A DNA stretch of 44,717 nucleotides, taken from an uncultured Dictyobacter sp. (lineage in GTDB: Bacteria; Chloroflexota; Ktedonobacteria; Ktedonobacterales; Ktedonobacteraceae). The stretch spans positions 231-44,947 of the forward strand of contig CAXTXB010000003.1 in the NCBI GenBank assembly GCA_964247965.1, given 5' to 3'. The translations under genes and the position numbers were made by a program. Below, piece by piece: positions 447 to 44,717 of the stretch. The notes below the pieces were generated by a model. It did no database searches. It saw nothing but the letters and a program-made list of their open reading frames with translations, and was not told the origin of the DNA. Position 1 is the stretch's first letter; every line of letters starts with the position of its first letter.

Positions 447-1574
447 TCACTCTCGTTGGACGAGCTGCGCCTCGTAGGTTTCAATCGTCCGTCTGTAAAA
501 GGCAATCATTGCCTCGGCCTTCTTCAGTGCACCAGGATCGGCAACAATGCGGCCGCTCCTATGATCGTCCAGTAGGGCCAGATGGGGCTGGATGGCCTCA
601 ATGGCAGCATTGTACTGGGCAAGGTCCACCGTGCGCGGCATCCTGGCACGGTTGGCATGGATCAGAAGGCGAACACGATCTCCCGGAGTCGTCGGCGTCG
701 GAGGTGGGGCAGGCTGATTGTAGTCGAGGGCAGCCGGCACGATGGTGGCCACCGTTTCCTCTTCCGCCGCCGCCAGCTCCTCTTTGACGGGTTCGTCGGA
801 GTCTTCATCAAACTGTGCACCGTCGCTACCCTGGTACTCATCGAAGTCGAAGCTATGATCTTCCAGCCAAGTCACTTCATCTTCTTGTGCTGATGCTGAT
901 GCCTGTGCCTGGCCAGCCTTGATATTTTTCCGCTCCACCCAGTAGCGATTGTGGCGCTGACGATAGAGCGCTTTGATCTGCTCGACCTGCTCATCGGAAA
1001 TGGCGAGCTGCTGCGTGAGAAAGTTCCAGCCAGGAATTTTGTAGCCGCTCCTGGTTTGATACTTCGGATTCACACACTCATCAGGTGCGATGAAGCCAAC
1101 AACGAGGAGCCAATGCACCGTTTCGCGGACGACCTTCTCACTATAGCAGGTGTCGCGGGAGATGGTCTTGAGGCTCGGAAAGATGTTGTTTCCGCTGCGA
1201 CTGGCATATTTAGCGAGTGCGCGAAAGATCTCGGAGATGCGAACCGGCAGCGGCAGCATCCGGATCGCGTCGGCGATGGGTGTGCGGATGGAGTCGATGC
1301 GAGGTTTGTCTTCGTTTGGCAAACGGTTGATGCGGTAGTGACCGCGCACGCGTTGAACCGAGAGAATCGAGATTTCTTCCAGCTCCTCCAGCTCGCGAAG
1401 CACACGCATGATCGTATGTGGGCACGCCTGGGCAACGGTGCACAACTCTGGAATGGAGCGATTTACTTCGCCGTTCTCATTCGACAAGCTAGCCAGGGCC
1501 ATGAGAACCCGCTTCTGTACAGGTGTCTCCAGGTGGCGCTGCCGCACGTCTGTTTGTATCGCATGGTTGATCAT
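447..1574 (-). CDS. Putative plasmid replication initiator with two HTH_36-like winged-helix domains
   Basis: Two repeats of the KxVLxALA...(FP)SxxxIxxxxxxSxxxVxxxLxxL pattern; flanked by iteron-like repeats on both sides. Confidence 0.65.
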   Translation of the reverse strand: MINHAIQTDVRQRHLETPVQKRVLMALASLSNENGEVNRSIPELCTVAQACPHTIMRVLRELEELEEISILSVQRVRGHYRINRLPNEDKPRIDSIRTPIADAIRMLPLPVRISEIFRALAKYASRSGNNIFPSLKTISRDTCYSEKVVRETVHWLLVVGFIAPDECVNPKYQTRSGYKIPGWNFLTQQLAISDEQVEQIKALYRQRHNRYWVERKNIKAGQAQASASAQEDEVTWLEDHSFDFDEYQGSDGAQFDEDSDEPVKEELAAAEEETVATIVPAALDYNQPAPPPTPTTPGDRVRLLIHANRARMPRTVDLAQYNAAIEAIQPHLALLDDHRSGRIVADPGALKKAEAMIAFYRRTIETYEAQLVQRE

Positions 1575-7951: not shown

Positions 7952-9163
7952 TTATTCATTCGTCAGAAGATGGTGCCCATCGACGTTCACGATTTCCAGT
8001 TCTTCTGGATGATCGTAGCGAGCAATCAATTGCTCTGCCCGTGTCATCACATGATCGAACGTCATGATTTCTATAGAATGAAGAGAGGCACCTAATCGAC
8101 GAAAGTATTCCTGTTGAAAGGTGTTCCATTCATGAGAACGCCCAATGACAATGCGAACTCGTGGTCGGACAAAGAGGACCGCACGTTCTTGCAGACGGCT
8201 TTGTGTGTAAATAGTATCTGCTCTTCGTTCCACGGCTCGCAGATACTTTGCTGCTTGCGCCAGTACTTTTGAAACTTCCTGTGAGAAGTAGTAGGTTTTA
8301 TGGCTCGGATCATGCTGAAGGACAGGTGCCTCTGGCGTTTTGAGTTCAAGGATATCGATAAACCCATCAGAGGTTTGCAATGCCATGTCGATGGTTGTAT
8401 CTGTATCGATATCACGAAGATTATTGATGCGCTGAACGTATTCTGTGCCGAAGACCCAGGAGTGGGCCTCAAACCACTTTTGATAGACGTGTTCAGTAAC
8501 GGTTCGACCTTTCCCATTTCCCTTCACCTGGTGGACGTTCCCTTCAACCATGTCTCGAAGCTCTTGCAACTCAGCTTTGTATTTTGTTTGGAGAGCCGCA
8601 GCAGCGAGATGTTTCAGGGTTGCCAGCTGGAGCTGACCATTCGCGTACAAACCTGCGAGTTGATGAGAAAGAGCAACGTCACTGAGGATGTTCGCGAAGG
8701 TTTGACGCTGAGACTCTGTCAAGTTCTCAAAGATTTCCTCAGGAGAAAAGGAAATACTGGGCTCCTCTTCCTTGGCGAGAAGAACTTTTGCCTGATGAAT
8801 ATAGGCGAGAAATGTTTCAAGGTCTGCATGATCTAAGCGAACTGCTCCTAATCGTTGAAAGTGTGAAGGTACTTCGTCAAGTCGTCTCCACTGTTCAATG
8901 TAGACATACACTCCTTTCGGTAGCTCATCATTCATATGTCGATGGATCGTCACTGCTTGCGCGATCTTGACAATATCGCGTCCTTGCTTGAGCCAACAAG
9001 AAGCTAAGTATTTGAGATTCTTTCGCCGAAATGGCTCATCTGGTGACTTCTCTTCGTTTCGACGAATACCGCGAGCGATCTGTTCTTCCGTTTTGATCGT
9101 CTTTTCACCCTCTTCAAAAAGATGGAGAAAGTTTCCTCCCTGCCCTTGTTGATCATTGAGCAT
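7952..9163 (-). CDS. sduA: Shedu anti-phage nuclease (DUF4263)
   Basis: EHVYQKWFEAHSWVFG, DMAL...DILELKTP, VLAQAAKY, RPRVRIVIGRS, IEIMTFD. Confidence 0.88.
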   Translation of the reverse strand: MLNDQQGQGGNFLHLFEEGEKTIKTEEQIARGIRRNEEKSPDEPFRRKNLKYLASCWLKQGRDIVKIAQAVTIHRHMNDELPKGVYVYIEQWRRLDEVPSHFQRLGAVRLDHADLETFLAYIHQAKVLLAKEEEPSISFSPEEIFENLTESQRQTFANILSDVALSHQLAGLYANGQLQLATLKHLAAAALQTKYKAELQELRDMVEGNVHQVKGNGKGRTVTEHVYQKWFEAHSWVFGTEYVQRINNLRDIDTDTTIDMALQTSDGFIDILELKTPEAPVLQHDPSHKTYYFSQEVSKVLAQAAKYLRAVERRADTIYTQSRLQERAVLFVRPRVRIVIGRSHEWNTFQQEYFRRLGASLHSIEIMTFDHVMTRAEQLIARYDHPEELEIVNVDGHHLLTNE

Positions 9164-10254: not shown

Positions 10255-10521
10255 GTGGGAAACATGCCGATCGCAGAAGCGATTATGGAGAGGGGACCTG
10301 GCGGGCAGGATGCAGTGAACGATGACGGGTCCCCTTTTTGCTGTCGTTGTAAGGAAGATTTCCCCGTAGTGCGTGAACCCGCCACATGGCAAATGGGAAA
10401 GATGCGGTTACTTGCGATGGCTCCGGAGACGATTCGTCGGCAATTCCGTGACTGGCTCACACATCCAACTGGAAAACATTTGTGTGGAAATTGCTACTTT
10501 GACCTGACTGATGAAGATTGA
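10255..10521 (+). CDS. Small Zn-finger protein
   Basis: CCRC...CGNC. Confidence 0.6.
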   Translation: MGNMPIAEAIMERGPGGQDAVNDDGSPFCCRCKEDFPVVREPATWQMGKMRLLAMAPETIRRQFRDWLTHPTGKHLCGNCYFDLTDED

Positions 10522-10562
10522 TGGTGCGCTCCACTCGCTTTCTTGAAAGGAGGACTAGAACG

Positions 10563-11000
10563 ATGAAAGTATTCAAGGGTGAGCAGCTGGTGACGGTGAC
10601 AGCGGATGTGGTTGTGACTGTTAGAGAAAGAAAAGCTCGTCGCGTTTCTCAAGATCATGTTTTGCTGATCCAGCGCCGGAGGCAACCGTACCAGGGCATG
10701 TGGGCATTGCCAGGCGGCAAGCTCAATCCTGGTGAGTCGATTGAGGGCTGCGCGTTGCGGGAGCTGACTGAAGAGACAGGCATCTGCGGGGAGTTGTTGT
10801 CCAGCTTGATCGGGGTCTATAGCGATCCAGGGCGCGATCCTCGTGGTCAGTTCATTTCAATAGCGTATCGTATGGCGTTGCCTACTTTTCCTTTAATCGT
10901 CGCTGGTGATGACGCAGCGGATGTTGCATGGTTCCCCCTTCATGGCCTGCCAGCTCTGGCTTTTGATCACCTCGATATTATTCAGCATGCTTTTGTGTAG
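10563..11000 (+). CDS. Nudix hydrolase (ADP-ribose pyrophosphatase-like)
   Basis: WALPGG...GESIEGCALRELTEETG Nudix box, RDPRG, AGDDA, LAFDH; AGGAGG RBS before ATG 10563. Confidence 0.92.
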   Translation: MKVFKGEQLVTVTADVVVTVRERKARRVSQDHVLLIQRRRQPYQGMWALPGGKLNPGESIEGCALRELTEETGICGELLSSLIGVYSDPGRDPRGQFISIAYRMALPTFPLIVAGDDAADVAWFPLHGLPALAFDHLDIIQHAFV

Positions 11001-13089: not shown

Positions 13090-14238
13090 GTGAAGATTAC
13101 GTGCACACAACAGGAGCTTCGAACTGCTCTTTCAACCGTTGGGCATGCAGTATCAGGGAGACCTACTCTTCCCGTACTGGCCAACATTCTTCTTAAAGCG
13201 GATCGTGGTCGCCTGGAACTGGCGGCGACCAATTTAGAGATTGGCATTAACTGTCGAATTGACGGTGCCGATATCAGCGAGGGTGGAGCGACAACGGTAC
13301 CGGCGAAGACATTTACTGATCTGGTTGCAAGTCTTCGACCAGGACCAGTAGAGCTCTCCCTTGATGAGGCAGCGCAGAGTTTGTCCGTCAAGGGCGCGGG
13401 TTGTAACGCGACAATTAGAGGATTAATCGATCCTACTGAGTTCCCTCAGCTCCCCAACTCCGAGGGCGGTGATGTGCTCACCCTCAATAGCAAGTTGTTG
13501 AAAGAGATGATAGCTCAAACGGCGATCGCAACGGCTGACGATGACTCGCGCCCTGTTCTCACTGGAATTGTTATTGACCTGGAGGATGAATGTTTGACGT
13601 TCGCCGGCGCTGATGCCTTTCGTCTGGCGCTTCGAAAAGCTGATGTTCCCTCTGGCCTGATCGACTATCTTGCTCCGATCATTGTTCCCGCAAAGACACT
13701 CCGCGAGCTGGCACGTATCCTATCGGGAGACGACGAGGTGCAAATGGTCGTGATGTCGAATCGGAGCCAGGTGCTTTTCCATACTGCCCGCGTTGATCTA
13801 GTCTCTCGACTGATCGAAGGGGCAATCCCCAACATTAAGGCAGCCGTGCCAAAGGAATACATCACGCGTGCTGTTGTGGGTACTGATGACTTCGAGATAG
13901 CAGTGAAGGCTATTACCCCATTCGCTCGCGAGGACTCCAATATTGCGCGCATCAAGATCGCTCCTCGCGATGATGGGGATGGGACGCTGACACTGGAGTC
14001 ATCAGCGGCCGACGTGGGCAGCAATATCACCACGATTCCTGCTGCCGTTCAAGGCCCTGGTTTAGACATCATCTTCAACTCCAAGTATCTCATCGATGTC
14101 CTCGCGATCATGGACATGGAGAAAGTCGCCCTGGAAGTTACTTCTCCAGGTCGGCCAGGCGTCATCAAACCGATTTGTCCTCCAGCAGTCACCCTCGATT
14201 ACACCTACATCATCATGCCAATGAGCACGAATCGCTAG
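13090..14238 (+). CDS. dnaN: DNA polymerase III beta sliding clamp (element-encoded)
   Basis: RPTLPVLANILL, LAATNLEIGI, DDSRPVLTGI, ADAFRLA, LVSRLIEG, IFNSKYLIDVL, YIIMPM; 382 aa. Confidence 0.96.
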   Translation: MKITCTQQELRTALSTVGHAVSGRPTLPVLANILLKADRGRLELAATNLEIGINCRIDGADISEGGATTVPAKTFTDLVASLRPGPVELSLDEAAQSLSVKGAGCNATIRGLIDPTEFPQLPNSEGGDVLTLNSKLLKEMIAQTAIATADDDSRPVLTGIVIDLEDECLTFAGADAFRLALRKADVPSGLIDYLAPIIVPAKTLRELARILSGDDEVQMVVMSNRSQVLFHTARVDLVSRLIEGAIPNIKAAVPKEYITRAVVGTDDFEIAVKAITPFAREDSNIARIKIAPRDDGDGTLTLESSAADVGSNITTIPAAVQGPGLDIIFNSKYLIDVLAIMDMEKVALEVTSPGRPGVIKPICPPAVTLDYTYIIMPMSTNR

Positions 14239-16464: not shown

Positions 16465-17070
16465 ATGACATCACATCCTATCACACGTGGCAGCTCCTCA
16501 TCTGAAAAGGAGATCACGACAGACGATTTGATCGTTTCTCTTCTCCCTCGTATCCGTGCGATCGCAACACGATTCTCGCAGAGCGGAGTGGATGCTGACG
16601 ATCTGGTTGGTATCGCGATGCTGAAGCTTGTTCAGAAGGCGCAGTATGTTCTTGCAATGCCTCTTGGGCAGGCGGAAGCATATCTCTGTATGGCAGCACG
16701 CAATGCGATGATTGATGCTGTGCGTATGGCTCTTCGTCGGCCATCTATTAGCCTTGATGCCCAGCGAGGAACGCTTGATGAAGAGCGGGGGACGCTGGCA
16801 GAGAGTCTTTGCGATCGCGACGATCCGTTCTTACCTCTTCTTGATGCTGAAATTGTTGAGTCGATCCTTGTTGGTCTGTCTCGACCATCCTATCGCGAGA
16901 TCGTCGAACGGCGCTGTGGTCTGGGTGGTTACGGTCCTCAGTCACAATCCTATGCTGAAATTGCAGAGGCAATGCGTCTGGCTCCCTCGACGGCGAGAAA
17001 GAACGGTTGTCGTGCTTTCGCTGAGTTGCGTGCCCTTCTTCAACATCAGGAATTGGAGATCTCGGCGTGA
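16465..17070 (+). CDS. Sigma-70 family RNA polymerase sigma factor (regions 2 and 4)
   Basis: IRAIATRF...DADDLVGIAMLKL...ARNAMIDAVR, ISLD, SYAEIAEAMRL...RAFAELR. Confidence 0.85.
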   Translation: MTSHPITRGSSSSEKEITTDDLIVSLLPRIRAIATRFSQSGVDADDLVGIAMLKLVQKAQYVLAMPLGQAEAYLCMAARNAMIDAVRMALRRPSISLDAQRGTLDEERGTLAESLCDRDDPFLPLLDAEIVESILVGLSRPSYREIVERRCGLGGYGPQSQSYAEIAEAMRLAPSTARKNGCRAFAELRALLQHQELEISA

Positions 17071-23753: not shown

Positions 23754-24344
23754 GTGAATACATTGTTTGATCTACAAGGTGCACCGCTTGACACTTCAAA
23801 TGAGTGGTATACGCCAGCTCAATATGTTGAGGCTGCGCGTGAGGTGATGGGAGAAATTGAGCTGGACCCGGCAAGTTGTGCTGCCGCTAACCAAGTTATT
23901 AAAGCACCTCGCTACTACACGCAAGAGCAAAACGGTCTTGTGCAGAGTTGGGCATGCTGCAGCATGTGGCTTAACCCGCCCTTTGGAAGCACGAATGGAA
24001 AAAGCAATATGGCGATGTGGACAGCGAAGCTCATAGAAGAGTATGGCGTTGGCAGAGTGAAACAGGCAATTCTTCTTTGCATGGCAAATACGGAAGCATC
24101 ATGGTTCGAGCCACTTTGGAGCTATCCCATTTGTTTTCCTTGTCCTCGTGTTCTCTTTCATCGTCCAGGCGGGAAAATGGATCACCATATTCAAGGAACC
24201 TGTTTTGTGTACTTTGGAGCAGAGACACAAACATTTGTAACAGCATTCAAGAAATTTGGTCCGGTTGTCACTCCTGATGGCGTTCATCGAACCGCCTTCC
24301 CTGCATCGCAATTGTCACTTTTAACGATGGAGACAGCATCATGA
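23754..24344 (+). CDS. Phage-type DNA N6-adenine methyltransferase (Dam-like), IS passenger
   Basis: NEWYTP, IELDPAS, NGL..SW, WLNPPF, TEASWF, RVLF. Confidence 0.88.
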   Translation: MNTLFDLQGAPLDTSNEWYTPAQYVEAAREVMGEIELDPASCAAANQVIKAPRYYTQEQNGLVQSWACCSMWLNPPFGSTNGKSNMAMWTAKLIEEYGVGRVKQAILLCMANTEASWFEPLWSYPICFPCPRVLFHRPGGKMDHHIQGTCFVYFGAETQTFVTAFKKFGPVVTPDGVHRTAFPASQLSLLTMETAS

Positions 24345-25543
24345 TGGTGGCTTCCGTAGGGAGGGCGAGTGATTCGCTGCAGCCCGCCGGTCTGCAAGAC
24401 TTTTGCCCTCAACACATCGAAACTGTAGCCTCTTCCCATGCGCTGAGTCAGCTTCATCATTCCGTTGAGGCTTTCCGTGTAGCCAGCAGTAAAACGATAG
24501 TTAAAGTAGTTAAAGATGGCGTCTCCATAGGTTTCGATGGTCAACGTAAAGGGGATGAATGCATCAGTCACATCGGGCGTGATTTGTGCGAACCATGCAA
24601 AGTAGCGTTGCAAAGCATCTTCTTCTGTCAATGCTTCATAAATGGCGTAAAAGCCTTCTTTGAGACGATAGGCGGTCTCCAAACGTGGGAAGTTCTTGAG
24701 CCACACCTCAAGGATCAAAGTTTCTCGCTCATTGAGGTCATGAGGACGCTTGAGCAAAAGAAATCGGTCATGCATCAAGGTTTTCCGCTCTTTGTCAGTC
24801 AGACTCTTTCGTATCTGCTTGCGAACCGTTTCCAAGCAGCCGGAAAGCAGCTTCAGGACGTGGAATTTATCTACGACCAATGTTGCATGGGGCAAGGCCA
24901 GATGGACGGCGCTATGGTACGACGCCCACATATCAGTACAGACAACCTGAATATGCTCTTTCATAGTATCGGGCAAGTTTTGCAAGTAGGCGAGAACGGT
25001 TGGTTTCTGTCTATCTCGAAGCAGATCAATGATGTGTCGGTGCTCAACGTCAGTGATGACGCAACGGTATTGATTGAGCAGATACAGCTCGTCAATCCCG
25101 ATGCAGATAGTCTTCACGCTAGTAGCGATGTCGAGATGCTTGATAGACTCGTGAAAGATGAGCCGGACAAGCTTCTCATCAATGCCGATGTCGTAGGCGA
25201 TACTCGTAAATGTTCTTCTCAGTGCCTCTTGAGCGATGTAAAGCACCAAGCGATTTGTCATCATATGATGCTCGTTCATCTCCGAGAGTGGTTCAAAAAA
25301 GGTTTTGTAACAGTCTCGGCAGCGGTACCGTTTTCTGATGACCAGGATGCCCGCTCTTTTTCCTCGAATTGGACTATCCATAAAGAGTTGCCGCTTGATC
25401 TCATGACGATAGAGTCTGAAGCTGGCACAATGTGGGCAGCACAAAGTAGCCGGTTCGTGCTCGGCTATGATGTGGCAGTCGTGTTCGTGCTCAGTAACGG
25501 ACAGGATACGCCAATGGGACCAGCCAAGAATATTCAAAGGCAA
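24284..25543 (-). CDS. ISL3 family transposase
   Basis: CPHC..RYRCRDC zinc finger, IGIDE, VCTDM, VVDKFHV, TESLNG..K..R.GRGYSF. Confidence 0.95.
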   Translation of the reverse strand: MPLNILGWSHWRILSVTEHEHDCHIIAEHEPATLCCPHCASFRLYRHEIKRQLFMDSPIRGKRAGILVIRKRYRCRDCYKTFFEPLSEMNEHHMMTNRLVLYIAQEALRRTFTSIAYDIGIDEKLVRLIFHESIKHLDIATSVKTICIGIDELYLLNQYRCVITDVEHRHIIDLLRDRQKPTVLAYLQNLPDTMKEHIQVVCTDMWASYHSAVHLALPHATLVVDKFHVLKLLSGCLETVRKQIRKSLTDKERKTLMHDRFLLLKRPHDLNERETLILEVWLKNFPRLETAYRLKEGFYAIYEALTEEDALQRYFAWFAQITPDVTDAFIPFTLTIETYGDAIFNYFNYRFTAGYTESLNGMMKLTQRMGRGYSFDVLRAKVLQTGGLQRITRPPYGSHHHDAVSIVKSDNCDAGKAVR

Positions 25544-26955: not shown

Positions 26956-27693
26956 GTGAACGTACAAGACGTCATAAACATTGCTGGAATTTTCTTTGGG
27001 GGGATAGGCGTTGTGGGCATCGTGATCTGGGTGATCATGGTTGTCCGGAGCTATCTTCGTCACTATGCTGGAACACTGTCTTTGGAGGATATGGCTTTTG
27101 CTGGGAATGGATGGGCGACGACGATGGCCTTCGTCGCGGCTTTTTTTGTCTTTTCGTCTGACAAAGTATATCCTCATCTCAATGCTCAGATCGTTACCCT
27201 CTTCTCCGTCACCGCTGGCCTGGTTCTTCTCATTCTTTGGATTGTCACGATCTATCTCTACCTCCAGGCAATGCGCCCAACCTATGTCTACTTGCTTCCC
27301 CATGATGCGGAGAAAGTGCGACAAATCAATTGTGAACAAGGCATTGTGACGGTTGCCAATAGCTATCCTGATGTCTTCCTTGATGACGCTCTTTTAGGTA
27401 TCTTTGCCCGTTCAGTGCAAGTTATCGTGCGCTCACAATTCTACTCCAGTAAGAGAAAAAAAGGGGCAAGGGAGCTGACGAACAGCTTTGAGGTCTTTTG
27501 TAACCTGGCTGCCGAGGGCTTTGAGTGTGGATATAGTGATTTTCTTGCAGCGTGCCAGGCAGCTCCTGATCATCTGGAGGCAACTCGTGCTCTCTTACTC
27601 CAGTGGCCGAAAACGAAGGAATCAGAACAACTGCAAAGCGAATTAGCGAAGCGTTACCTGGAGAAGAGAGACGACAACGATGAGACGATATGA
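26956..27693 (+). CDS. Membrane protein (three N-terminal TM segments)
   Basis: GGGAGG RBS; hydrophobic stretches. Confidence 0.65.
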   Translation: MNVQDVINIAGIFFGGIGVVGIVIWVIMVVRSYLRHYAGTLSLEDMAFAGNGWATTMAFVAAFFVFSSDKVYPHLNAQIVTLFSVTAGLVLLILWIVTIYLYLQAMRPTYVYLLPHDAEKVRQINCEQGIVTVANSYPDVFLDDALLGIFARSVQVIVRSQFYSSKRKKGARELTNSFEVFCNLAAEGFECGYSDFLAACQAAPDHLEATRALLLQWPKTKESEQLQSELAKRYLEKRDDNDETI

Positions 27694-27796
27694 TCGCTCT
27701 AGAGGAACTGTAGATGGTCATACCTGTTAGTATACAGTAGTATAATTTGTGCAGGTATGTGTGAGCGTACCTGCATTCATTTTTTGAGGGGATGTT

Positions 27797-29311
27797 ATGA
27801 GTGATGAGGGACAAACTCCAGTATTAAAGCGTCGCTATCGATCGATGCCAGAGCGCAAAGCAGCCTTTGTGGATGTGCAACGCGGGATATTTTTGTATGA
27901 AGATGGCCTCACAAAATTCGAGTACGATACAGCACTCTCCCTGGCGTCGATTCTGGACCTGATTGCAGAAGGCGCGTGGGATCGACGGGGACCTGAAATT
28001 ATCTATATTATTGGCTGTTGGAATGCAGCGAGTACACCGGCGCGGGAGTGGTTTGAAGCATCCACAGGCTGGGAGCGTACGTCATATCATCGAAATCCAA
28101 TTATTGCTCTTTATAGGAACGGCTCAAAGCACGTGACTCTGTATGGATCAGCCCAATGGTTTGGTCAATGCGGTGAAATTGAGTTGGTTCAAGCTGCCTA
28201 TGTGCGTTTGCGTGTTCTCTTGCGTGAGAGTTTCGGCCAGGAAGTCAATCTCATGGGTACACCTGCTAGGACTGGACTTGATCTTATCGAACGGAGTTTG
28301 CCGACGGATCGAGACAAAAGATCATATGAGTGGCCAGTACTACCGAGGGAGATCCGGGAGGTCATCGAACACAACATTGGGCAGGGACGGATGGAGATGC
28401 TTCGCCAGATACCAGAGATGCCGAAGGCAGAGAAGCTCTATATCGAGGATGCCATCTGGATGTACAGCGCGTGCTGTCGGCGACTTCCATCTGGGCCTGT
28501 GCAGCATGATACGGTTGACGAATTTGCCGGGTATCGTGTTGGGTTTTATCGAATCGAATTTCAGGTCCCGTCAGGTTGGCATCACATCGGGTTGATCCCA
28601 ACCTGGAATCCTAAGGAGAAACGGAGTATCTGGCCCAGTCGGCCCAGTACCTATTGGTACACTGGCTATGTGTGTGCAGAGGAGCTGCGTATCGCGCTTG
28701 AGCCGCCTGAAGGTCTTCCTGCGTGGCCTGTGCGAATCAAGGAGCGCTGGCTCTTTGAGAGCGGTGATAGTCTGGCACAAGATCCTTTGAGAAATTGGAT
28801 TGAGAAGCTCCGTGCATTGCGTGAGAGTTGCACTGAGACGGTGGAGGGTGAACTGCTGGCACCGCTTCTGCGTAGTGCGATCCGTTCCATTTGCATCAAA
28901 GCAATTGGTAGCCTGCACAGAAAAGGTAGATATCAGGTTGTAGAGACGCCGATCTCTCGGTTGGCTGATATCCCAGAGGACGCTGAAGTTGTCTTTCGCT
29001 CTGGTACTCATGTGCGATGGCGCAAGCCGATCTCTCTCGATGCTTCTATGGCGCATTTCGCGCATCCGGAGTGGAGCGCATACATTTGGGGACGAGCACG
29101 TGCACGCTTGGCAAAGGCTGCGCTCTCTCTTCCTCGCGAAACGCTCATTGCTTTACGAAGCGATGCAATTGCAGTAACGTTTGATCCTGGATGGCGCGGA
29201 TCAAAGCCTGGTGAGTTTAGGCTGAAGCGGATTATTGACCTGGACGGCCGGTCACTGCCGAAAACAACGCAGGACTATCTGAATCTCCTTCAAGATCCTG
29301 AAGAGGAGTAG
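27797..29311 (+). CDS. Tap-like (telomere-associated protein type) family-B DNA polymerase-like protein
   Basis: TPARTGLDL; motif A-like IEDAIWMYSAC (D218); PLRNWIEKL; motif B-like IRSICIKAIGSL; HPEWSAYIWGRARARL; motif C-like RSDAI (D456); PGEFRLK. Order and spacing match Tap/PolB palm motifs as recalled. Confidence 0.65.
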   Translation: MSDEGQTPVLKRRYRSMPERKAAFVDVQRGIFLYEDGLTKFEYDTALSLASILDLIAEGAWDRRGPEIIYIIGCWNAASTPAREWFEASTGWERTSYHRNPIIALYRNGSKHVTLYGSAQWFGQCGEIELVQAAYVRLRVLLRESFGQEVNLMGTPARTGLDLIERSLPTDRDKRSYEWPVLPREIREVIEHNIGQGRMEMLRQIPEMPKAEKLYIEDAIWMYSACCRRLPSGPVQHDTVDEFAGYRVGFYRIEFQVPSGWHHIGLIPTWNPKEKRSIWPSRPSTYWYTGYVCAEELRIALEPPEGLPAWPVRIKERWLFESGDSLAQDPLRNWIEKLRALRESCTETVEGELLAPLLRSAIRSICIKAIGSLHRKGRYQVVETPISRLADIPEDAEVVFRSGTHVRWRKPISLDASMAHFAHPEWSAYIWGRARARLAKAALSLPRETLIALRSDAIAVTFDPGWRGSKPGEFRLKRIIDLDGRSLPKTTQDYLNLLQDPEEE

Positions 29312-29316
29312 CTGCA

Positions 29317-30330
29317 ATGGGTTTTTTTGATCGAGTTCGTAATCTCGTCATCGGGCGAGGATTTCGCGATACGCCCGTATCACCACCAGAGCCTGCACCA
29401 GAACCACAACGCCAGCCAGAACCGGAACGACGTGGAATTCTTGACCGGTTGCGCGATCGTGTTACTGGTGCAGATCGGCAACGTGAGGAACAGGAGCGTC
29501 AGGCGCAAGAGGTAGAGCGTCTGCGCGAAGAGGCCCGGCAGGAACAAGAACGACAACGCCAAGAAATTCAGCGTCAGCAGGAGGAGCTGGCTCGACAACG
29601 TGAAGAGATCCGCCAGGAACAAGAGCGGCTGCGCCAGGAACGTGAACAGCTCCAGCGCGCGGAGCAGGAACGCCGAGAAGCTGAAAGACAAGAGCAGGAA
29701 CGTGAACGCCAGGAGCAGGAACGGCAGCGGGTTGAGCAAGAGCGCCAGGCACAAGAACGACAACGGCAAGAGCAAGAGCAGCGCGATCGTGAACAATGGC
29801 AGAAAGAGGTAGGGATTGACCGCGAGGTGACTGGCGGTAAAGTAGCTGGGGTAAGTTGGACAATTTATACGGTGCGTACGCCAGAGGAACTCATGGAGAG
29901 ATTACGCGATGCCACTGATGCTGGCAAGCGCGTGGGTCTGAGCGTCCATGATAAAAATGGATGGCAGCAACTGTATGTCAACCAGGGTCGTGGTCAGGCT
30001 ATTGATCCACGAACAGGGATGCTTATTGGTGGAGGGTCTGGTATGAGTGCGAGCGAGTTGCGAGATCGGCTCGAAAAATATGGAGTACCTGGCGGGGAGC
30101 CTTTGCCTTCTAGTGATAGAACCGTGACCGGTATTGGTGATTTCCCTTCTAGCGATGGTGACATTGATTTAGGCGAAGGAGGTGTGCTTGACGGTCCAGA
30201 GTGGGATTACGATGATGCAGATGATGGCGGCGACTATGATGTCGATGAGAGTGAGGGGGCTGATGAAGACAACGAATACGCTGGCTACGATGGCGCGAGT
30301 GTCAATGGCTATCAGCTCGTTGTCTATTAG
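29317..30330 (+). CDS. Polymerase partner, candidate terminal/primer protein
   Basis: 5 bp after the polymerase stop; MGFFDRVRNL and GILDRLRDRV amphipathic motifs, ~110-aa Q/E/R coiled coil, acidic Tyr-rich C-terminus; function inferred. Confidence 0.55.
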   Translation: MGFFDRVRNLVIGRGFRDTPVSPPEPAPEPQRQPEPERRGILDRLRDRVTGADRQREEQERQAQEVERLREEARQEQERQRQEIQRQQEELARQREEIRQEQERLRQEREQLQRAEQERREAERQEQERERQEQERQRVEQERQAQERQRQEQEQRDREQWQKEVGIDREVTGGKVAGVSWTIYTVRTPEELMERLRDATDAGKRVGLSVHDKNGWQQLYVNQGRGQAIDPRTGMLIGGGSGMSASELRDRLEKYGVPGGEPLPSSDRTVTGIGDFPSSDGDIDLGEGGVLDGPEWDYDDADDGGDYDVDESEGADEDNEYAGYDGASVNGYQLVVY

Positions 30331-30735: not shown

Positions 30736-31320
30736 ATGGAGATGGAGATTAAAGCGCGGCGGTGGTTAGCCGTTTGGTTCCAGTGTCCAGAATGTGGAGC
30801 GCAATCAGGAAATCCTATGTTGACACCGACGAAGAAGCATCGTGAGCGTGTATATGAGTGTTCTTCGTACACTCATCGTGAGCGACGGGTGCCTATGCAG
30901 CTTGTTGAGCGACGGTACTACACAACGTTTGCAATCGAGACTAGTATTAGCTTTACCACTATAGCTGGTACGCTTGAGCGGATTGGGCCATTTAGGGTCT
31001 GCAACATTGTGTATCCGGATATTCGCGCATTCCGTAAATGGGTAGAAAAGCGTCGGGCGGAACTGGCGGAGCAATCGCGTCAGTATATGGAACATATGCG
31101 GATACAGCAGGAAGAAAGTGAGGCTAGGCGCAAGCGGGAACGTGAAGAGGCGGTATTACTTAAGGAAGCTGAGGCTGTAGTGTATCGACGCTCACATGCG
31201 GTAGAGATGGCGGCGGAGCAGGTGGCGCGTGCTGCACGGCCGAAGGAGTCAAGGCCGGAAGATAGTTTCGTTTTCCCTGATAATGGGTGGCTGGATGATC
31301 TCGACGATCATCCCTTCTAA
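30736..31320 (+). CDS. Zn-ribbon/coiled-coil protein ending in an SSB-Ct-like tail
   Basis: CPEC...C...H; C-terminus LDDLDDHPF. Confidence 0.65.
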   Translation: MEMEIKARRWLAVWFQCPECGAQSGNPMLTPTKKHRERVYECSSYTHRERRVPMQLVERRYYTTFAIETSISFTTIAGTLERIGPFRVCNIVYPDIRAFRKWVEKRRAELAEQSRQYMEHMRIQQEESEARRKREREEAVLLKEAEAVVYRRSHAVEMAAEQVARAARPKESRPEDSFVFPDNGWLDDLDDHPF

Positions 31321-31340
31321 CGACGAACCCTGGTGGGGTT

Positions 31341-31373
31341 GCCCTGGTTGGTAAGTGCCAGCTAGGGCTTTTT
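31341..31373 (+). terminator. Intrinsic terminator closing the accessory operon
   Basis: GCCCTGGTTGGT...GCCAGCTAGGGC-TTTTT. Confidence 0.7.
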
Positions 31374-31794
31374 GCGCTATTTGATTTCTAACATTTTTTA
31401 GAACAAAGGTAAGTTTTTGAGGTGAACTAAAAATTGATAGGCTATAATCTTGTCCGATAACTTAAAACGCGTTATACTAACGGGGGCAAACAAAAACCAT
31501 TCGCAAGAAAACGCATTTGCTGGCAGGCTTGGTGTTTCTTGAAAATGGCTCTTTGTCCACAACAGGTAGTTGCAAACAGGTGTCGCTGTTCAAAACCAGT
31601 GACATCACTATGTATTTATATAGTAGTGTCAACGGTTTATAACTTATCACAGTTGCATATTATTGTCAACAGTAGAAGCAATGCTCGTTGGCTTGTAGAG
31701 CCAATGGAAGTGCTATTGAGCAGTAACGTCCACAATGCATATGCGACATCTGTCTGCAACAGTTTTATACTAGTTTTTTAGAGGAGGCTGTTGT

Positions 31795-31956
31795 ATGCCA
31801 CATGTTCGAGTGACAAGGTTTTCGCATAACACACGTTTCTCAGTTCTTGTTCCAAATGAGCAGAGTGCAAAGCTAAAGGTGATCAAGCGAGTTGTTCGAA
31901 CAACGAAAAAGCAAAGGAATATTGTTCAGTTGACTCTTCCATTTGTGAAGAACTAG
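31795..31956 (+). CDS. 53-aa basic microprotein with C-terminal clamp-binding-like motif QLTLPF (absent from ORF track)
   Basis: AGAGGAGG RBS; MPHVRVTRFSHNTRFSVLVPNEQSAKLKVIKRVVRTTKKQRNIVQLTLPFVKN. Confidence 0.55.
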   Translation: MPHVRVTRFSHNTRFSVLVPNEQSAKLKVIKRVVRTTKKQRNIVQLTLPFVKN

Positions 31957-32036
31957 TCATCCAAGTATTCATCGTGAGAGCTAATCTCCTCAAATGAATT
32001 GGCTCTCGATGGAGTAACAGACCTTTGGTGGGAGTG

Positions 32037-32068
32037 GCCTGGCTAGCAAATGCTGGCCAGGCTTTTTT
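32037..32068 (+). terminator. Intrinsic terminator
   Basis: GCCTGGCTAGCA-aa-TGCTGGCCAGGC-TTTTTT. Confidence 0.75.
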
Positions 32069-32073
32069 AATGC

Positions 32074-32310
32074 CTTTTTAGAGTGAAACCATTTTACCTT
32101 TATACATGTTTAGACTTATACAATTTTAGAGGAAAACAATTTTACCGTTTTACCCTTCTACTATTTTACTATAAAACCATTTTAGAGTTATAAAGCTATA
32201 ACGGTGTTAAGGTATTAATTTTTACATTTTTAGAGTGAAACCATTTTGCTGCTTTACCATTTTACAATTCTACTGCTAAACCTTTTTAGAACCTTGCCAT
32301 TTTAGGAGAA
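32074..32310. repeat. Centromere-like (parS/parC) AT-rich repeat array upstream of parA
   Basis: Many TTTTA(C/G) and AAACC units; TTTTAGAGTGAAACCATTTT exact at 32076 and 32228. Confidence 0.65.
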
Positions 32311-32374
32311 TACCTTTATACTCTTCTAGAAGAGTATCGTTTTGCTCGATTGATCTGTAACGGAGAAAAGACAG

Positions 32375-33148
32375 ATGCGAACGTATTGTCTAACGTCTAT
32401 AAAGGGTGGGGTCACTAAAACAACTTCTACAGTTAACCTTGGTCATGGACTGGCTCAAACTGGTCGCCGGGTACTCATTATTGACGCCGATCATCAATGC
32501 AATTCGACGCTTGCATTGCTTAAAACTGTTCAAGAGGACACAGCCGGAACCTTTTACGATGTGATGATGAATCGGCGGCCTGTCCGAGAAGTTATCCAGC
32601 GTACACCATTTGAGAACCTCGATATTGTGCAGGGGTCTATGTGGCTCTCAAACGCGAATACCCAACTTGCAAGCCAATTTGGTCGAGAGACGATTTTGAA
32701 GACTGCTCTACAGGGTGTAACTGGCTATCATTATATCTTGATTGATACCCCTCCTAACACGGAGCTTATTACCGTCAATTGTTGGGTAGCTTCTGACCAA
32801 CTTGTTATTCCACTAACTCCATCATGGTTTGCCATGTTTGGTATACGCATCCTGGAGATCCAGCTGGCAGATATTCAGAGGCAGACGGGCCGGGAATACG
32901 AGATATTTGGAGTGATCATCGCCATGGATGATCATACGAATAAAAGTGAGAGACGATCAGCTGAGATTCGCGAATACTTTGGAGAGAAGGTCTTTGGGAC
33001 CGCAATTCCGAAAAATGTAAAGGTTGAAATGGCAACGGATGAGGCGGCAGCAATTTATGACTATGCGCCTGGAAGCACTGGAGCGAATGCATATGCAAAT
33101 TTAGTAACAGAGTTTATTCAGCGAAGCGAGGGCGCATATGCCTACTAA
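32375..33148 (+). CDS. parA: ParA/Soj partition ATPase
   Basis: Deviant Walker A KGGVTKTT, IIDADHQCN, YILIDTPP, IPKNVKV. Confidence 0.95.
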   Translation: MRTYCLTSIKGGVTKTTSTVNLGHGLAQTGRRVLIIDADHQCNSTLALLKTVQEDTAGTFYDVMMNRRPVREVIQRTPFENLDIVQGSMWLSNANTQLASQFGRETILKTALQGVTGYHYILIDTPPNTELITVNCWVASDQLVIPLTPSWFAMFGIRILEIQLADIQRQTGREYEIFGVIIAMDDHTNKSERRSAEIREYFGEKVFGTAIPKNVKVEMATDEAAAIYDYAPGSTGANAYANLVTEFIQRSEGAYAY

Positions 33149-37195: not shown

Positions 37196-37786
37196 ATGAC
37201 CTGTATTGCGGGGCTCGTTGATCCGGAAAGCAACTGTGTTTACATTGGGGGGGATAGTGCATCGACCAATGATAGTGGCTTACAAACGATTCTGGCTGGC
37301 CGTAAAGTCTTTTTTATTGGGAAAGGGGAGAATAGGATGCTTCTGGGTTGCACCACATCATGTCGAATGATGCAATTGTTGCAGTACGAGTTACAGCTTC
37401 CGACGTATGAGCAAGGCATGGAGGTAGAAGAGTACCTCGTGACCAAATTTGTCAATGCGGTGCGAGAATGCCTAAAGACCGGCGGGTTTGCACAGAAAGA
37501 GGATGAAAAGGAGACTGGCGGCAATTTCCTTATCGGCTATCGAGGGAGGCTCTTTGAGGTACAAGATGATTATCAAGTTTCTGAGCCGATAAACGGCTAC
37601 GAGGCTGTGGGCAGCGGAGCAAAGTTCGCCCTCGGGTCAGTGTATGCGACACCCCATCTTCTACCAGAGCAGCGCATCAGACTTGCCCTGGAAGCATCCG
37701 CGTATCACAATGCCTATGTTCGACCGCCATTTCTCATCAAAAGGCTCGAACCTGTCGAGGCACGAGAGGCCGTCCTTTCCGCATAA
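37196..37786 (+). CDS. Phage-type Ntn-hydrolase (HslV/proteasome-beta-like)
   Basis: MTCIAG (Thr2 nucleophile position), VYIGGDSA, KVF, AVGSGAKFALGS, ALEAS...VRPPF. Confidence 0.78.
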   Translation: MTCIAGLVDPESNCVYIGGDSASTNDSGLQTILAGRKVFFIGKGENRMLLGCTTSCRMMQLLQYELQLPTYEQGMEVEEYLVTKFVNAVRECLKTGGFAQKEDEKETGGNFLIGYRGRLFEVQDDYQVSEPINGYEAVGSGAKFALGSVYATPHLLPEQRIRLALEASAYHNAYVRPPFLIKRLEPVEAREAVLSA

Positions 37787-39773: not shown

Positions 39774-41249
39774 TTACAGCTCGTCGGGCTCATCGTCGTC
39801 CGGATCGGGCGGCGGAATCGGGCGCGGCGGTTGTGGTGCTGGTGCTGCTGGCTTCGACTTTGGAGTTGCTGGCGTTGGTTGCGCTGGCTGTGCCTGTGGA
39901 TCGGGCGCGATCGTCTTCTTGGGTCGTGGCTTTGATGGTTTCGTTGCGGGCTTTGTTGCCGTTGCAGTTCCCCCAGCTCCACTTGACTGCGCGGCCTGGC
40001 TCTGAGTTTTTGCCTGCTGCTGGGCAAGTCGGCGCTGCGCTTCTACCTCGGAGATCTGGCGTTGCACTTCCTCTTGCTGGCGGATCTCACGCCACGCATC
40101 TTGTATTTGATCCTGTGTGACGGGCACTTGGACGGTTTGCGCTTGTTGTGAGTGGCCGGAATAGATCCAAAATGCCTGGCCTGTTGTTTGACGCAGAACC
40201 GCGTCAACGGGTACTTTCCAGTCGCGCCCCATGCGTACGTGCTGGCGGATCATGCCTTCTTCATCCTCAGCGTATGAGGTGTCGATCTTCAACTTCTTGC
40301 CAGCGCGCTTGGTGATCTCGAAGGGATCGCTGCAGCGATGCACGATATAGGTTGAGCAGGCGTCAAGAATCCGGTTGGCATATTCTGGTGGTCCCAGTCC
40401 AGCATAGCCTTGTGCCGATATGACGAGACATCCGCCAAAACTGCGGGCTTGCTCAAAGAGCATACTGGTCTCCTCGCGGGAGCGCAGCGCGTTCAACTCG
40501 TCAACGATAAAGAGAGTCACAACGCCAGGGCGGCGGCGCTCGGAGACATAATGCATGAAGTCGTGAATGAGAAATCGGCCTAAGCGCGGAGCCTCGTTGC
40601 GCAGCGCGAAGCCGCGCACACGTAGATACACGGCATCCGCGTCCACGTAGTCGAGCGTGCCATCGAGCTGACCGGCCATAGCGTCGAAAAACACGTTATA
40701 GCGCATTTCAACTTGTTTGAGAAGATCCTTATCAAGATTGTGCACGCGCTGGAGCTGCAATCGGTCATTCGCGTAGATTGCTTTCAGTCGATTGAGCCGT
40801 AAGTTTGCTAAGAAGTGATCGCTACTCCTGGGTGTCGTTGGAGCGGCAAGCGCCAGGCCAACGGCATTCGCGGCCACGTCGCCGTAGTAGGGCGACTCTG
40901 CGTAGTCAATCACGGAGAGAAGCCGGTTCTTCATCTCGGTGGCTGTTCCTTGCCAGCCATTATAGTAGATCGATGGAAAGACCTTGATGTTGTGCGCGCC
41001 AGCCGCCTGCATGGTGGCAACGAATCGCGCTGCATTGTCCTGGCCTTCTTCATCGTCGCGTTTCTTTTCGCCCTTCGCGTCTAGATAGATGACTTGCAGG
41101 TTGTGGACTTTGCGTCCGCCGTAGCCGATTCTTTGCAACGTTTCAGTCTTGCCGGTGCCTGATTGACCGGCTGCAACGGCATGAAGGTGTAGTGCTTCAA
41201 GCGGCCAGGTGAAGAGCTTCCCGCGCTGCGTCCATCGTAAATCCCCCAT
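39774..41249 (-). CDS. VirD4/TraD-like type IV coupling protein, ATPase part
   Basis: Walker A GQSGTGKT, YLDAKG, Walker B FIVDE, QARSFG...SAQ, IVHR. Confidence 0.85.
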   Translation of the reverse strand: MGDLRWTQRGKLFTWPLEALHLHAVAAGQSGTGKTETLQRIGYGGRKVHNLQVIYLDAKGEKKRDDEEGQDNAARFVATMQAAGAHNIKVFPSIYYNGWQGTATEMKNRLLSVIDYAESPYYGDVAANAVGLALAAPTTPRSSDHFLANLRLNRLKAIYANDRLQLQRVHNLDKDLLKQVEMRYNVFFDAMAGQLDGTLDYVDADAVYLRVRGFALRNEAPRLGRFLIHDFMHYVSERRRPGVVTLFIVDELNALRSREETSMLFEQARSFGGCLVISAQGYAGLGPPEYANRILDACSTYIVHRCSDPFEITKRAGKKLKIDTSYAEDEEGMIRQHVRMGRDWKVPVDAVLRQTTGQAFWIYSGHSQQAQTVQVPVTQDQIQDAWREIRQQEEVQRQISEVEAQRRLAQQQAKTQSQAAQSSGAGGTATATKPATKPSKPRPKKTIAPDPQAQPAQPTPATPKSKPAAPAPQPPRPIPPPDPDDDEPDEL

Positions 41250-41255
41250 ATAGTG

Positions 41256-41834
41256 TTACTCCTGTTCTCGATCATCGATGGCGATCCCGATCACCATGCT
41301 ACCGCCTGCTGCATCAGGCACGTGTTCAGGGCGTCGTGCTTGTCGCCTGGCGCGTTGCCCTCGACGGTCGATTCTACGCAGTCGGTGCTGTTCCTCTTGC
41401 TCCAACTGGCGTTTCGTCTGCCCTGGTTGCCTCTGTGCGTTGGTTTCTTGAAGCCATGCAACGAATCCGGCAGCCGGTAATGTTCGTAGCCAGATAGGCC
41501 ACGTCTCAGGCCAGAGACGGTGGAGCGGCAGAAGTCGAACATCGAAATTTGCATGTAGGAATGCAAGGTAGTAGTCGCTCCACTCCTTGATAAGCATCCG
41601 TTCTAAGCCGTGTGTGTAAAAGTAGAAAATGAGTCCAGCACCGGCAAAGGTCAGCGCAAACCACAAGTACCACGTCCAGGAAGTGCGGGGAGTGAGCCGC
41701 CAAACCAGTAACCCAACGACAACGCAGGGAAGGCCGGTGATGATGACGAGAGCTGCTCCTACGCAAAGGGTGATGCCCCATTCGATGCCGCCGCCGTTGT
41801 TAGAGTTGTGCTGGGATCTACGGGAGATAGTCAT
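41256..41834 (-). CDS. Membrane protein, probable detached N-terminal anchor of the coupling protein
   Basis: Two to three TM segments; lies between relaxase and ATPase genes. Confidence 0.65.
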   Translation of the reverse strand: MTISRRSQHNSNNGGGIEWGITLCVGAALVIITGLPCVVVGLLVWRLTPRTSWTWYLWFALTFAGAGLIFYFYTHGLERMLIKEWSDYYLAFLHANFDVRLLPLHRLWPETWPIWLRTLPAAGFVAWLQETNAQRQPGQTKRQLEQEEQHRLRRIDRRGQRARRQARRPEHVPDAAGGSMVIGIAIDDREQE

Positions 41835-42543
41835 GGCCGTAGTCCTCCAAATTGTAAATCTTGAACGGCTTGCGCATGTCGGGCATGAAGTCTTCCAGCC
41901 GTTTCTCGACCTGGCGGCGCGTTGCTGGGGTAGTGAAGTACCAGACTGACTTATAAGTGAGTGCCAGCTCGCGCAGATCATCTTCCAGCTCGTCCTCGGT
42001 CTTTGCATTGCACTCGACCTCGATCGCGGTGATCTTGCCGTTTTCGGCGTTCGTGAGGATCGCGTCGGCTGCGTGCGGTTTGGTCTCGCCCTTCTCTCGT
42101 TGCCCTTGTTCTCTCAGGATCTCGCGTTCTGATTGCCAGGGGTCTTTAGGGCGTTTCGCCTCGATCGAGAGGCGCACCTGGTTAATATAGAAGAGGTGTG
42201 GGATATGGGTGCCTGATGGCGCGCCGCTATAATTGAATTTTAGGTCACATTCTCGGAGCCCAGCGCGGGTGAGCCAGATCCATGTTCTATCGCGGTGGCG
42301 AATGCCGTCCTTCTCGATGAGCCCCAACGCCAGCCACTTGCGGATCAGCTCATACGTGCGGTCGAGGGAGATGAAGTCTACATCCTCGCGCAACTTTTTG
42401 CGGTCGGCATCCGGGGTATAGCGGTAGAGGAGTCGCTGTAGTTGATCAATGCGGATCGCATATTGTAGGCCGATCCACAGCAGGCAGAGCCGATCTCGCG
42501 GTGTGAGATGATAAGTCTTAGGTGAGCCGTCAGATATAAGCAT
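41818..42543 (-). CDS. Replication-relaxation (Replic_Relax) family putative relaxase
   Basis: LTPRD..L..I...QLQRL, WLTRAG, H...INQVR, WQSERE, ADA, AIEVE...KT; AAGGAGG RBS before ATG 42543. Confidence 0.8.
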   Translation of the reverse strand: MLISDGSPKTYHLTPRDRLCLLWIGLQYAIRIDQLQRLLYRYTPDADRKKLREDVDFISLDRTYELIRKWLALGLIEKDGIRHRDRTWIWLTRAGLRECDLKFNYSGAPSGTHIPHLFYINQVRLSIEAKRPKDPWQSEREILREQGQREKGETKPHAADAILTNAENGKITAIEVECNAKTEDELEDDLRELALTYKSVWYFTTPATRRQVEKRLEDFMPDMRKPFKIYNLEDYGHDYLP

Positions 42544-42746
42544 GTTCCTCCTTGTGTCGTAGTGCTTCAAATTATAGAATTTTTGCTCAAGATGATTTTA
42601 GCAGATCAGTCAAGCGACCGGCTATACTGGCATTCTTACGCGCTTGATGCAATGCGGAAATGATGGATGTTGTTGATTTACTTGGCAATTTGCAGGGCAG
42701 GGGATTGAGTCGGTGAGCAGGCTTCTAAGGCTGATGCAGTGCATTG

Positions 42747-44557: not shown

Positions 44558-44717
44558 TAAGCATACAAGCAGTGATAAAGTATTTCCTTAGTGTAGGCTA
44601 TTCCTATAGTCGGGGATGGAAGAGGAAAGCGAGAGCAGATGACGGAGGTCCAGGTCTGGCCGCGATGGTGGGCGAGTGCGTGTGTGGGTGATGATCGTGT
44701 TGGGGTCGCCTGTGAGG

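Follow-up and report, generated by a model that had tools for sequence, protein, structure and literature searches.

Probable distant relatives of the SCP1 Tac/Tpc proteins as candidate end-capping machinery of a probably linear 45-kb plasmid in the phylum Chloroflexota

Introduction

Protein-capped bacterial replicons are described only in Actinobacteria in the literature covered here. Among the systems known, those closest to the locus described below are Tac/Tpc, found on SCP1 and also on pSCO2, pFRL3 and in Kitasatospora, and Tap/Tpg of Streptomyces chromosomes, for which the literature gives the same reaction. In vitro, Tac links a nucleotide to Tpc and synthesises a short oligomer; both proteins are essential for SCP1 replication, and the Tac and Tap systems are said to share no homology (PMC4513846). 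The available part of a preprint calls the enzymes B-family and states that three such pairs share no homology (bioRxiv 10.1101/2024.11.13.623437). Adjacent genes for a polymerase-like and a terminal protein, associated with non-archetypal telomeres, are also known as GtpB/GtpA of Streptomyces griseus and as the TmpA/TmpB candidates (bioRxiv 10.1101/2025.10.14.682034), which can be likened to the present pair by description only. In the linear plasmids of Micrococcus, terminal-protein genes were not found, according to the accessible part of that report (PMC11707576).

The pair studied here lies on a 44,717 bp stretch of DNA (the window), which corresponds to positions 231-44947 of contig C3 of the draft genome of an uncultured Dictyobacter sp. 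(G000). An initial annotation of this sequence had placed the pair in a host outside the Actinobacteria, and the host does belong to the Chloroflexota (class Ktedonobacteria). Linear chromosomes and megaplasmid-like replicons, one with terminal repeats, have been reported from this class, and the words telomere, terminal protein, Tap and Tpg have zero occurrences in the available main text of the two reports (PMC13289182, PMC6497799). In a literature search by title and abstract, whose scope took in few subscription papers and neither the first SCP1 report nor those on GtpA/B, no paper was seen to name a terminal-protein system in Chloroflexota.

The two proteins, a polymerase of 504 amino acids (aa) and a partner of 337 aa, are probably distant relatives of SCP1 Tac and Tpc that would serve as end caps for a 45-kb plasmid, itself probably linear, with dCMP as the first nucleotide, and their relatives likely cap linear chromosomes in this second bacterial phylum. 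The type of system is already known. What is new is its presence in a second phylum, chromosome ends included, a separate clade with C-run ends, a coiled-coil partner without a helix-turn-helix (HTH), and a measured homology between Tap and Tac. The pair thereby names candidate end-maintenance machinery for the linear replicons of Ktedonobacteria.

Results

The Polymerase and Its Relatives

The two open reading frames (ORFs) of the pair were found at the positions initially annotated, with a gap of 5 bp:

27797..29311, + strand: 504-aa polymerase ORF, Tac-family protein-primed DNA polymerase with a predicted phi29 fold
29317..30330, + strand: 337-aa partner ORF, candidate terminal protein without an HTH

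All of the PolB palm-like motifs quoted for the polymerase are present and in order (EDAIWMY at residue 217, with D218; RSICIKAIGSL at 363; HPEWSAYIWGRARARL at 423; RSD at 454, with D456; GEFRLK at 472), and key columns in them are conserved across 192 relatives, so that they are more than chance. Pfam, NCBIfam and PHROGs hold no family for the polymerase and gave weak coiled-coil-type or chance matches only for the partner, while a search of PDB sequences returned nothing. An N-terminal HTH had been reported as missing, and neither protein has a Pfam HTH match.

A word-index search retrieved 33 relatives with 26-72% identity, 10 of which carry a precomputed mark for PF03175 (organellar and viral PolB), and an exhaustive search at E<=0.001 gave 580 cluster representatives, the best 150 of which were listed. 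The PF03175 cut-off was passed by 4 of 30 relatives tested. P0120, P0168, P0175, P0132, P0137 and P0170 are fusion proteins of 920-1540 aa in which D5-type primase-helicase, Toprim or DUF3854 domains precede the polymerase. Broken or split polymerase genes were also seen (G105:C1:125-1053, G038:C2:278065-279609, G005:C226 and G030:C819), one of them at the very end of a chromosome-sized contig. A phage origin of the pair was considered and rejected, as the polymerase had no match in 50,697 phage records (tblastn) or in two scans of viral contigs, and no virion gene was detected among the 45 window ORFs scanned.

The relationship to Tac was traced through plasmids. Searched with tblastn, 55 plasmid records match the polymerase, all of those among the matches listed (40) being actinobacterial, and 10 of 12 hand-picked records with a match are labelled linear. 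One match is pSCO2 (E 3e-21), the record of which begins GGGGGG; the part of its description available reports SCP1-type telomeres and tac/tpc, and no tap/tpg (PMC8743542). It carries a polymerase-partner pair, with the tac/tpc locus tags assigned in the present analysis. When the gene downstream of the pFRL3 match was used as the query, it retrieved 259-aa proteins with an ARVRRR motif, which is quoted for Tpc (PMC2425503), and their cluster contains CAC36648.1, the accession of Tpc (bioRxiv 10.1101/2025.10.14.682034). Likewise, the Streptomyces plasmid protein P0333 is 28% identical to the 504-aa polymerase over 526 columns (E 1e-46), and downstream of it, behind a transposase, is a member of the 90% cluster of Tpc. 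The profile A1 matches all ten actinobacterial plasmid polymerases (E 4e-69 to 2e-96). These results strongly suggest that the 504-aa polymerase belongs to the Tac family, a label given by linkage, because its relatives are encoded upstream of Tpc relatives. Given this placement in a family encoded upstream of SCP1 Tpc relatives, the pair is not the new system that had been proposed as a candidate. The host, a chloroflexote, and the enzyme itself set the window apart from Tac/Tpc, since the polymerase lacks an N-terminal extension of 150-250 aa and falls in a separate clade: in a FastTree tree with midpoint root it is one of 101 sequences (support 0.999), and the Streptomyces proteins together with the copies of genomes G102, G104 and G141 form a separate, weakly supported group (0.73).

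The initial annotation had described a tap-tpg-like pair. BLAST gave no match between the polymerase and Tap, and the models NF047542 (Tap) and NF047541 (Tpg) gave no match by the pair at E<=0.1 (pSV2 controls, 1093 and 295 bits). Using hhalign, the 192-sequence profile aligned to one Tap (pSV2) at 92% (E 6.6e-7, 246 columns) with both Asp in register, the alignment scoring 58.8 against at most 20.75 in 20 shuffles; an earlier, smaller profile of 33 sequences had reached only 15%. Tap is therefore, at the level of profiles, a remote homologue, and the gene order is also the same. To this extent the description was apt, but the nearest characterised system is SCP1 Tac/Tpc instead, and the window polymerase differs from Tap in having no N-terminal HTH, as its partner does in being unrelated to the 185-aa Tpg. 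The comparison ties Tap to the Tac family at profile level; a phi29 fold can also be predicted for the latter, as described below.

Predicted Fold and Conserved Residues

A structure model, one of the checks that had been proposed, predicts a PolB fold of the phi29 type for the 504-aa protein, from exonuclease domain to palm, with the two catalytic Asp. The AlphaFold2 model has a predicted local distance difference test score (pLDDT) of 89.3 and a predicted template modelling score of 0.88. In a Foldseek search its top 9 rows are all phi29 polymerase (E 6.8e-14; next family, 6.4e-5), and the VIA structural match to that enzyme has a Z of 20.5 with 417 residues aligned (root-mean-square deviation 4.8), the next non-phi29 match having a Z of 11.8. 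It spans model residues 19-504 on phi29 residues 5-537, at 12% identity.

For the alignment of 192 relatives, matches of at least 440 aa were combined with 10 actinobacterial plasmid proteins and the Ktedonobacterales copies. Both D218 and D456, the conservation of which had been named as a second check, are D in 192/192 relatives, and G371 is G in 192/192; R363 (191), Y223 (187) and R435 (182) are nearly invariant. The motifs of phi29 polymerase are given as Dx2SLYP, Kx3NSxYG, Tx2GR and YxDTDS in the part of the source available (PMC4974454), and the conserved columns of the 504-aa family appear to correspond to them by order, not by residue-level superposition. On this mapping, Kx3NSxYG is replaced by R-x7-G and YxDTDS by RSD in the window family.

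Two further differences from phi29 polymerase concern proofreading and processivity. Across residues 1-190, where an exonuclease-type fold is predicted to be kept, no column is more than 74% D/E, and D26 is D in 91/192 relatives, so that the catalytic carboxylates seem to be lost. The polymerase had been annotated as having no recognisable proofreading exonuclease, which holds for the catalytic acids but not for the fold, predicted from residue 19. The tail after the motif C Asp has a median of 51 and a maximum of 86 residues among the 192 relatives, whereas the phi29 polymerisation domain, in the same partial source, runs from D458 to 572, about 115 residues past that Asp (PMC4974454). Given this short tail and a model match that stops at phi29 residue 537, the thumb, which closes the processivity ring in phi29, is predicted to be mostly absent. 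Because the exonuclease acids and most of the thumb are missing, we infer that the 504-aa enzyme is an active but non-proofreading and poorly processive protein-primed polymerase.

The Partner Protein

The 337-aa partner has a basic N-terminus (residues 1-42), a Q/E/R-rich, coiled-coil-like stretch (43-165), a conserved alpha/beta domain predicted at about 166-257 and completed in the model by a C-terminal strand (332-337), and, between these, an acidic insert (258-330) in which 24 of 73 residues are D or E. Only partners of the window's subfamily have the coiled coil. Tpc, in contrast, has an N-terminal HTH and a bipartite nuclear localisation signal, and the priming domain of the phi29 terminal protein is a four-helix domain rather than alpha/beta. 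The model of residues 164-337 has a pLDDT of 73.5; it found no Foldseek match at E<=0.001 (best structural Z, 5.4), which does not in itself show a new fold, and a search of the ESM Atlas with the partner gave no usable match.

Of 60 downstream proteins, 45 were recovered by iterative profiles built from the C-terminal half of the partner, and every decoy in a set of about 3,200 ORFs stayed at E 0.15 or above. A gene-neighbourhood survey of this kind had been suggested at the outset; it found the partner domain directly behind the polymerase in 38 of the 48 distinct relatives with room downstream. Because the profile was built from such partners, this figure speaks for the coherence of the family and is not an independent test. 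The conserved linkage to a partner unlike Tpg was thus borne out, the comparison of the domain with two Tpg sequences giving E 0.75 and no link. The partner of the Micrococcus pLMV7 pair did not join the family; the pair itself makes the Tac-type family a source of candidates for the linear plasmids of Micrococcus.

When the Streptomyces rows were left out, the partner-domain profile picked up 30 of the 121 proteins of the Tpc family at E<=0.01, with Tpc itself at 0.006, and none of 7,141 decoys. In the reverse direction, a Tpc profile found the partners of G004, G141, G071 and G102 (E 9e-9 to 0.007; best decoy, 1.3). The C-terminal domain, and that domain only, is therefore likely to be a remote homologue of Tpc, judging from these profiles, and the new class of terminal protein that had been envisaged is probably not wholly new, although the link is weak. 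In the partners of G104, G102, G141 and G071 the N-terminal region resembles that of the partner in pSCO2 (E 4e-11 to 2e-6 with the latter as the query), and these HTH-bearing proteins bridge the Tpc-type and window-type forms. Candidate priming residues are S244 (S/T/Y in 67% of 42 rows), T188, Y184/T185, Y332 and Y337, none of which is invariant.

Ends of the 45-kb Element

The ends of C3 form an imperfect inverted repeat of 119 bp (79% identical, E 2e-12), the left arm of which (C3:14-129) lies just left of the window. The right arm is within it:

44601..44717 (G000:C3:44831-44947), - strand: right arm of the terminal inverted repeat, 79% identical to C3:14-129

The left end begins CCCCACGCG, that is, with CCCC. 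The right end is without the first 13 nt of the repeat, and assemblies commonly miss 12-13 terminal bases of such telomeres (bioRxiv 10.1101/2025.10.14.682034). The end sequence of C3 was found nowhere else in G000 and gave only short, weak matches outside it in 169 genomes of the class. Of these genomes, G122, which is marked as unpublished, bears on none of the conclusions. C3 is also the strongest inverted end match in G000 apart from C24, a contig of 24,742 bp. The latter was rejected as a second repeat-ended element because it is a perfect palindrome over its whole length, and it is either an assembly artefact or a hairpin-ended element.

SCP1-class telomeres have 4-6 G at the 5' end and hairpins with 4-nt loops. 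Those of the window element also begin with a homopolymer run, and the polymerase gene is directly followed by the partner gene as in Tac/Tpc, but the ends start with C, are imperfect repeats and have no strong hairpins (the left end has one or two stems of 4 bp and the right end has none). They are also without the CCCGCGG palindrome I of the Tap/Tpg systems. Recognition through a palindromic overhang was thus found to be unsupported for the 45-kb plasmid, its ends folding like shuffled sequences.

As far as the assembly can be trusted, C3 is probably a whole linear plasmid. A linear plasmid was one of the two forms initially suggested for the element, and it is favoured by the inverted ends, the telomeric position of relatives and the following genes:

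447..1574, - strand: HTH_36/replication-initiator-like protein, candidate Rep for an internal origin, sharing 59% identity with an L003 gene close to the left end of that contig
32375..33148, + strand: ParA-type partition ATPase, followed by a 121-aa candidate partner
13090..14238, + strand: DNA polymerase III beta clamp with three Pfam domains

No iteron array was found near the rep gene. The gap upstream of parA (31320-32375) is 62% AT and holds a direct repeat, 19 bp or longer, together with two hairpins of terminator type; it is a candidate centromere or origin.

Related Linear Elements and Chromosome Ends

The smallest element of this kind found is L006 (metagenome contig Ga0070739_10012461; 7,872 bp), an apparently complete linear element with perfect 45-bp inverted ends that start CCCCCAGGCGG; contig G032:C44 ends with the same 11 bases. 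L006 carries the pair, the polymerase being 50% identical to that of the window, and an AAA_25/DnaB-like helicase directly upstream. It also encodes a membrane protein, has two HTH genes and includes a gene for 253 aa that is 34% like that at 41818-42570 of the window; its ends have two hairpins. With the compact 504-aa enzyme, which has no N-terminal extension, this 7.9-kb element offers a convenient model.

In the class Ktedonobacteria, 17 of 169 genomes have a polymerase match. G104 (Ktedonobacterales) has four copies of the pair, all of which point outward and lie about 3 kb inside an end, within a 10,897-bp repeat that is identical at all four ends of its two replicons; these ends start GGGGGC. 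With candidate machinery named, and located inside the terminal repeats of this one genome, end maintenance in a second phylum becomes directly testable. G141:C3 starts GGGGC and has the pair 3.7-6.7 kb inside, again pointing outward. In G102, four ends have a G run, and a single intact copy lies internally. G-run telomeres 50-70 nt long, in which GCTGTCGC is repeated and strong hairpins are lacking, were seen at the C1 and C2 ends of G104 (L078-L081), at ends of G102 (L084, L093, L166, L167) and at G141:C3 (L085). Common to a chromosome and a second replicon, they may represent a telomere class undescribed as far as our searches reached. Like SCP1-class telomeres, the ends of G104, G102 and G141 start with at least four G, yet they fold like shuffles: z ranges from -0.64 to +0.71, against -1.85 for pSCO2 and -1.3 and -1.5 for L006. 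The chromosome ends carry short direct repeats and no strong fold, which suggests that end recognition may differ from that in Streptomyces. Inverted ends were present in none of 10 contigs from polymerase-negative genomes.

Several observations weigh against a linear, Tac/Tpc-capped plasmid. The linearity of C3 is deduced from the assembled sequence, its left 220 bp are joined across a scaffold gap of 10 N, and 13 of the 736 contigs of G000 have some end-to-end inverted match. Compared with shuffled sequences its ends show no stronger folding (z +0.25 and -0.20), unlike the palindromic overhangs of Streptomyces. None of the 8 draft contigs positive for the polymerase had matching ends, a C or G run opened just 2 of the 52 locus ends, and two of the 12 hand-picked plasmid records are labelled circular. 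The Tac family is defined by linkage, Tac itself (CAC36646.1) being outside the comparison and not in the clusters of two close relatives. The window's partner has no direct match to Tpc and is absent from the Tpc-profile matches at E<=5, and the profile-profile probabilities for partner and Tpc are modest (12%, 35% and 70%). Lastly, the ESM Atlas has two clusters of look-alikes (about 500 aa) with mostly virus-labelled members, which are either mislabelled linear plasmids or phages using a Tac-type polymerase. The scaffold gap, the reliance on assembled sequence, the other inverted contig ends and the circular records would also fit an element that is circular or integrated, with inverted ends produced by an assembly break at an imperfect palindrome (e.g., fused telomeres) and a pair that is left over or acts in trans, and several relatives do lie inside large contigs without matching ends. 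We consider this very improbable, as the end sequence of C3 is unique in G000 and begins with a C run like those of L006 and G032:C44, and both genes are intact and conserved.

A Model for End Maintenance

In the model that we consider likely, drawn by analogy with Tac/Tpc, the plasmid would be copied from an internal origin by its Rep protein, the host replisome and its own beta clamp, leaving 3' single-stranded overhangs. The 504-aa enzyme would then bind the 337-aa partner and, using D218 and D456, link the first nucleotide to a Ser, Thr or Tyr of the partner's C-terminal domain. This nucleotide would be dCMP, because the left end begins CCCC and the template would be a 3' G run. With its proofreading acids and most of the thumb missing, the polymerase would make no more than a short oligomer. 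Its extension by a host polymerase would patch the end, and the partner would stay bound to each 5' end. The plasmid-borne clamp may serve the extending polymerase.

The pair could also prime replication from both ends, with whole strands then copied by strand displacement, either by the 504-aa enzyme and a helicase or, after hand-off, by host Pol III on the plasmid clamp, and no need for an internal origin. L006, with its helicase directly upstream and no recognised Rep among the 6 ORFs scanned, would suit this scheme, as would the upstream dnaB genes in two Streptomyces plasmids, the relatives fused to primase or D5 helicase domains, the non-palindromic ends of C3, and a beta-hairpin (E379-411) that the model keeps between fingers and palm, where phi29 polymerase has TPR2 (by position). 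Against it are the polymerase's lack of proofreading acids and of most of the thumb, the synthesis by Tac of no more than a short oligomer in vitro (PMC4513846), the presence of ParA and a Rep-like gene in the window, and the use of the Tac-type polymerase family by megabase replicons too. Initiation at the ends is thus distinctly unlikely.

A broader and tentative idea, which we rate as rather unlikely, is that the C-run elements (the 45-kb plasmid, L006 and G032:C44) are a missing link that joins the phi29 style of replication to that of Streptomyces. At a non-palindromic end, the oligomer made by protein priming would itself serve as the origin and be handed to a helicase and a clamp-loaded host polymerase. 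The HTH-less, coiled-coil terminal protein would have a new architecture and would in addition tether the ends for partition or transfer. If so, the Tap, Tac and phi29 polymerases would form one lineage, and the protein-capped chromosomes of two phyla would derive from such plasmids.

Other Genes and Signals of the Plasmid

Two further genes might bear on the function of the pair:

39774..41249, - strand: TrwB/TraD-like coupling ATPase, Pfam E 2.5e-7, 73% identical to an L002 gene
43467..44447, - strand: DEDDh (RNase_T family) exonuclease, Cys-rich at its N-terminus and located 270 bp from the right end

The exonuclease could provide what is missing from the polymerase, namely proofreading or the trimming of ends. 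A relative of it lies near the pair in L022.

The coupling ATPase raises the question of transfer. With the defence cargo of the plasmid (Shedu SduA, TIR), the restriction of the coiled coil to the window's subfamily, and an end-first transfer model proposed for such plasmids in the available part of one report (PMC11707576), it would accord with a pair that makes protein-linked DNA for conjugation or defence, the coiled coil and acidic insert piloting the strand to the ATPase. Relatives located in chromosomal terminal repeats and the kinship to Tac/Tpc, which is essential for SCP1 replication (PMC4513846), make this extremely improbable as the main role; a part in transfer could be additional to end maintenance, not an alternative. 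The defence or anti-defence purpose once offered for a circular form found no support, the telomeric context being supported instead.

Upstream of the pair are two possible signals:

27741-27746, + strand: TATAAT hexamer without a recognisable -35, putative promoter
27749-27776, + strand: hairpin of 12 pairs (z -3.8), followed by a T run and classed as terminator-like by the scan

Both had been read as belonging to the pair. The hexamer is there, but the -35 position is TCATAC and the site is not among the 8 of a promoter scan. The hairpin is significant; its role as a leader is doubtful, since the T run behind it makes a terminator the simpler reading. It is likely that of the upstream gene (26956-27693), or else an operator.

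C3 shares genes with L002, L003, L005, L006 and L009. Its defence cargo consists of a Shedu SduA nuclease (7952-9163, - strand; Pfam E 2e-20) and a TIR_2 protein (6016-6456, + strand), and the TIR region is 70-78% identical to G000:C29, so that defence cargo may move between plasmid and chromosome. Other cargo includes a sigma-70-type factor (16465-17070), a Dam-type methylase (23754-24344), a NUDIX hydrolase (10518-11000) and an HslV-like peptidase (37196-37786). The ORF at 24284-25543 (- strand) is 80% identical over 192 aa to G000:C220; it is probably an insertion sequence that splits a gene found whole in L003, with the 516-aa ORF on the + strand as its shadow.

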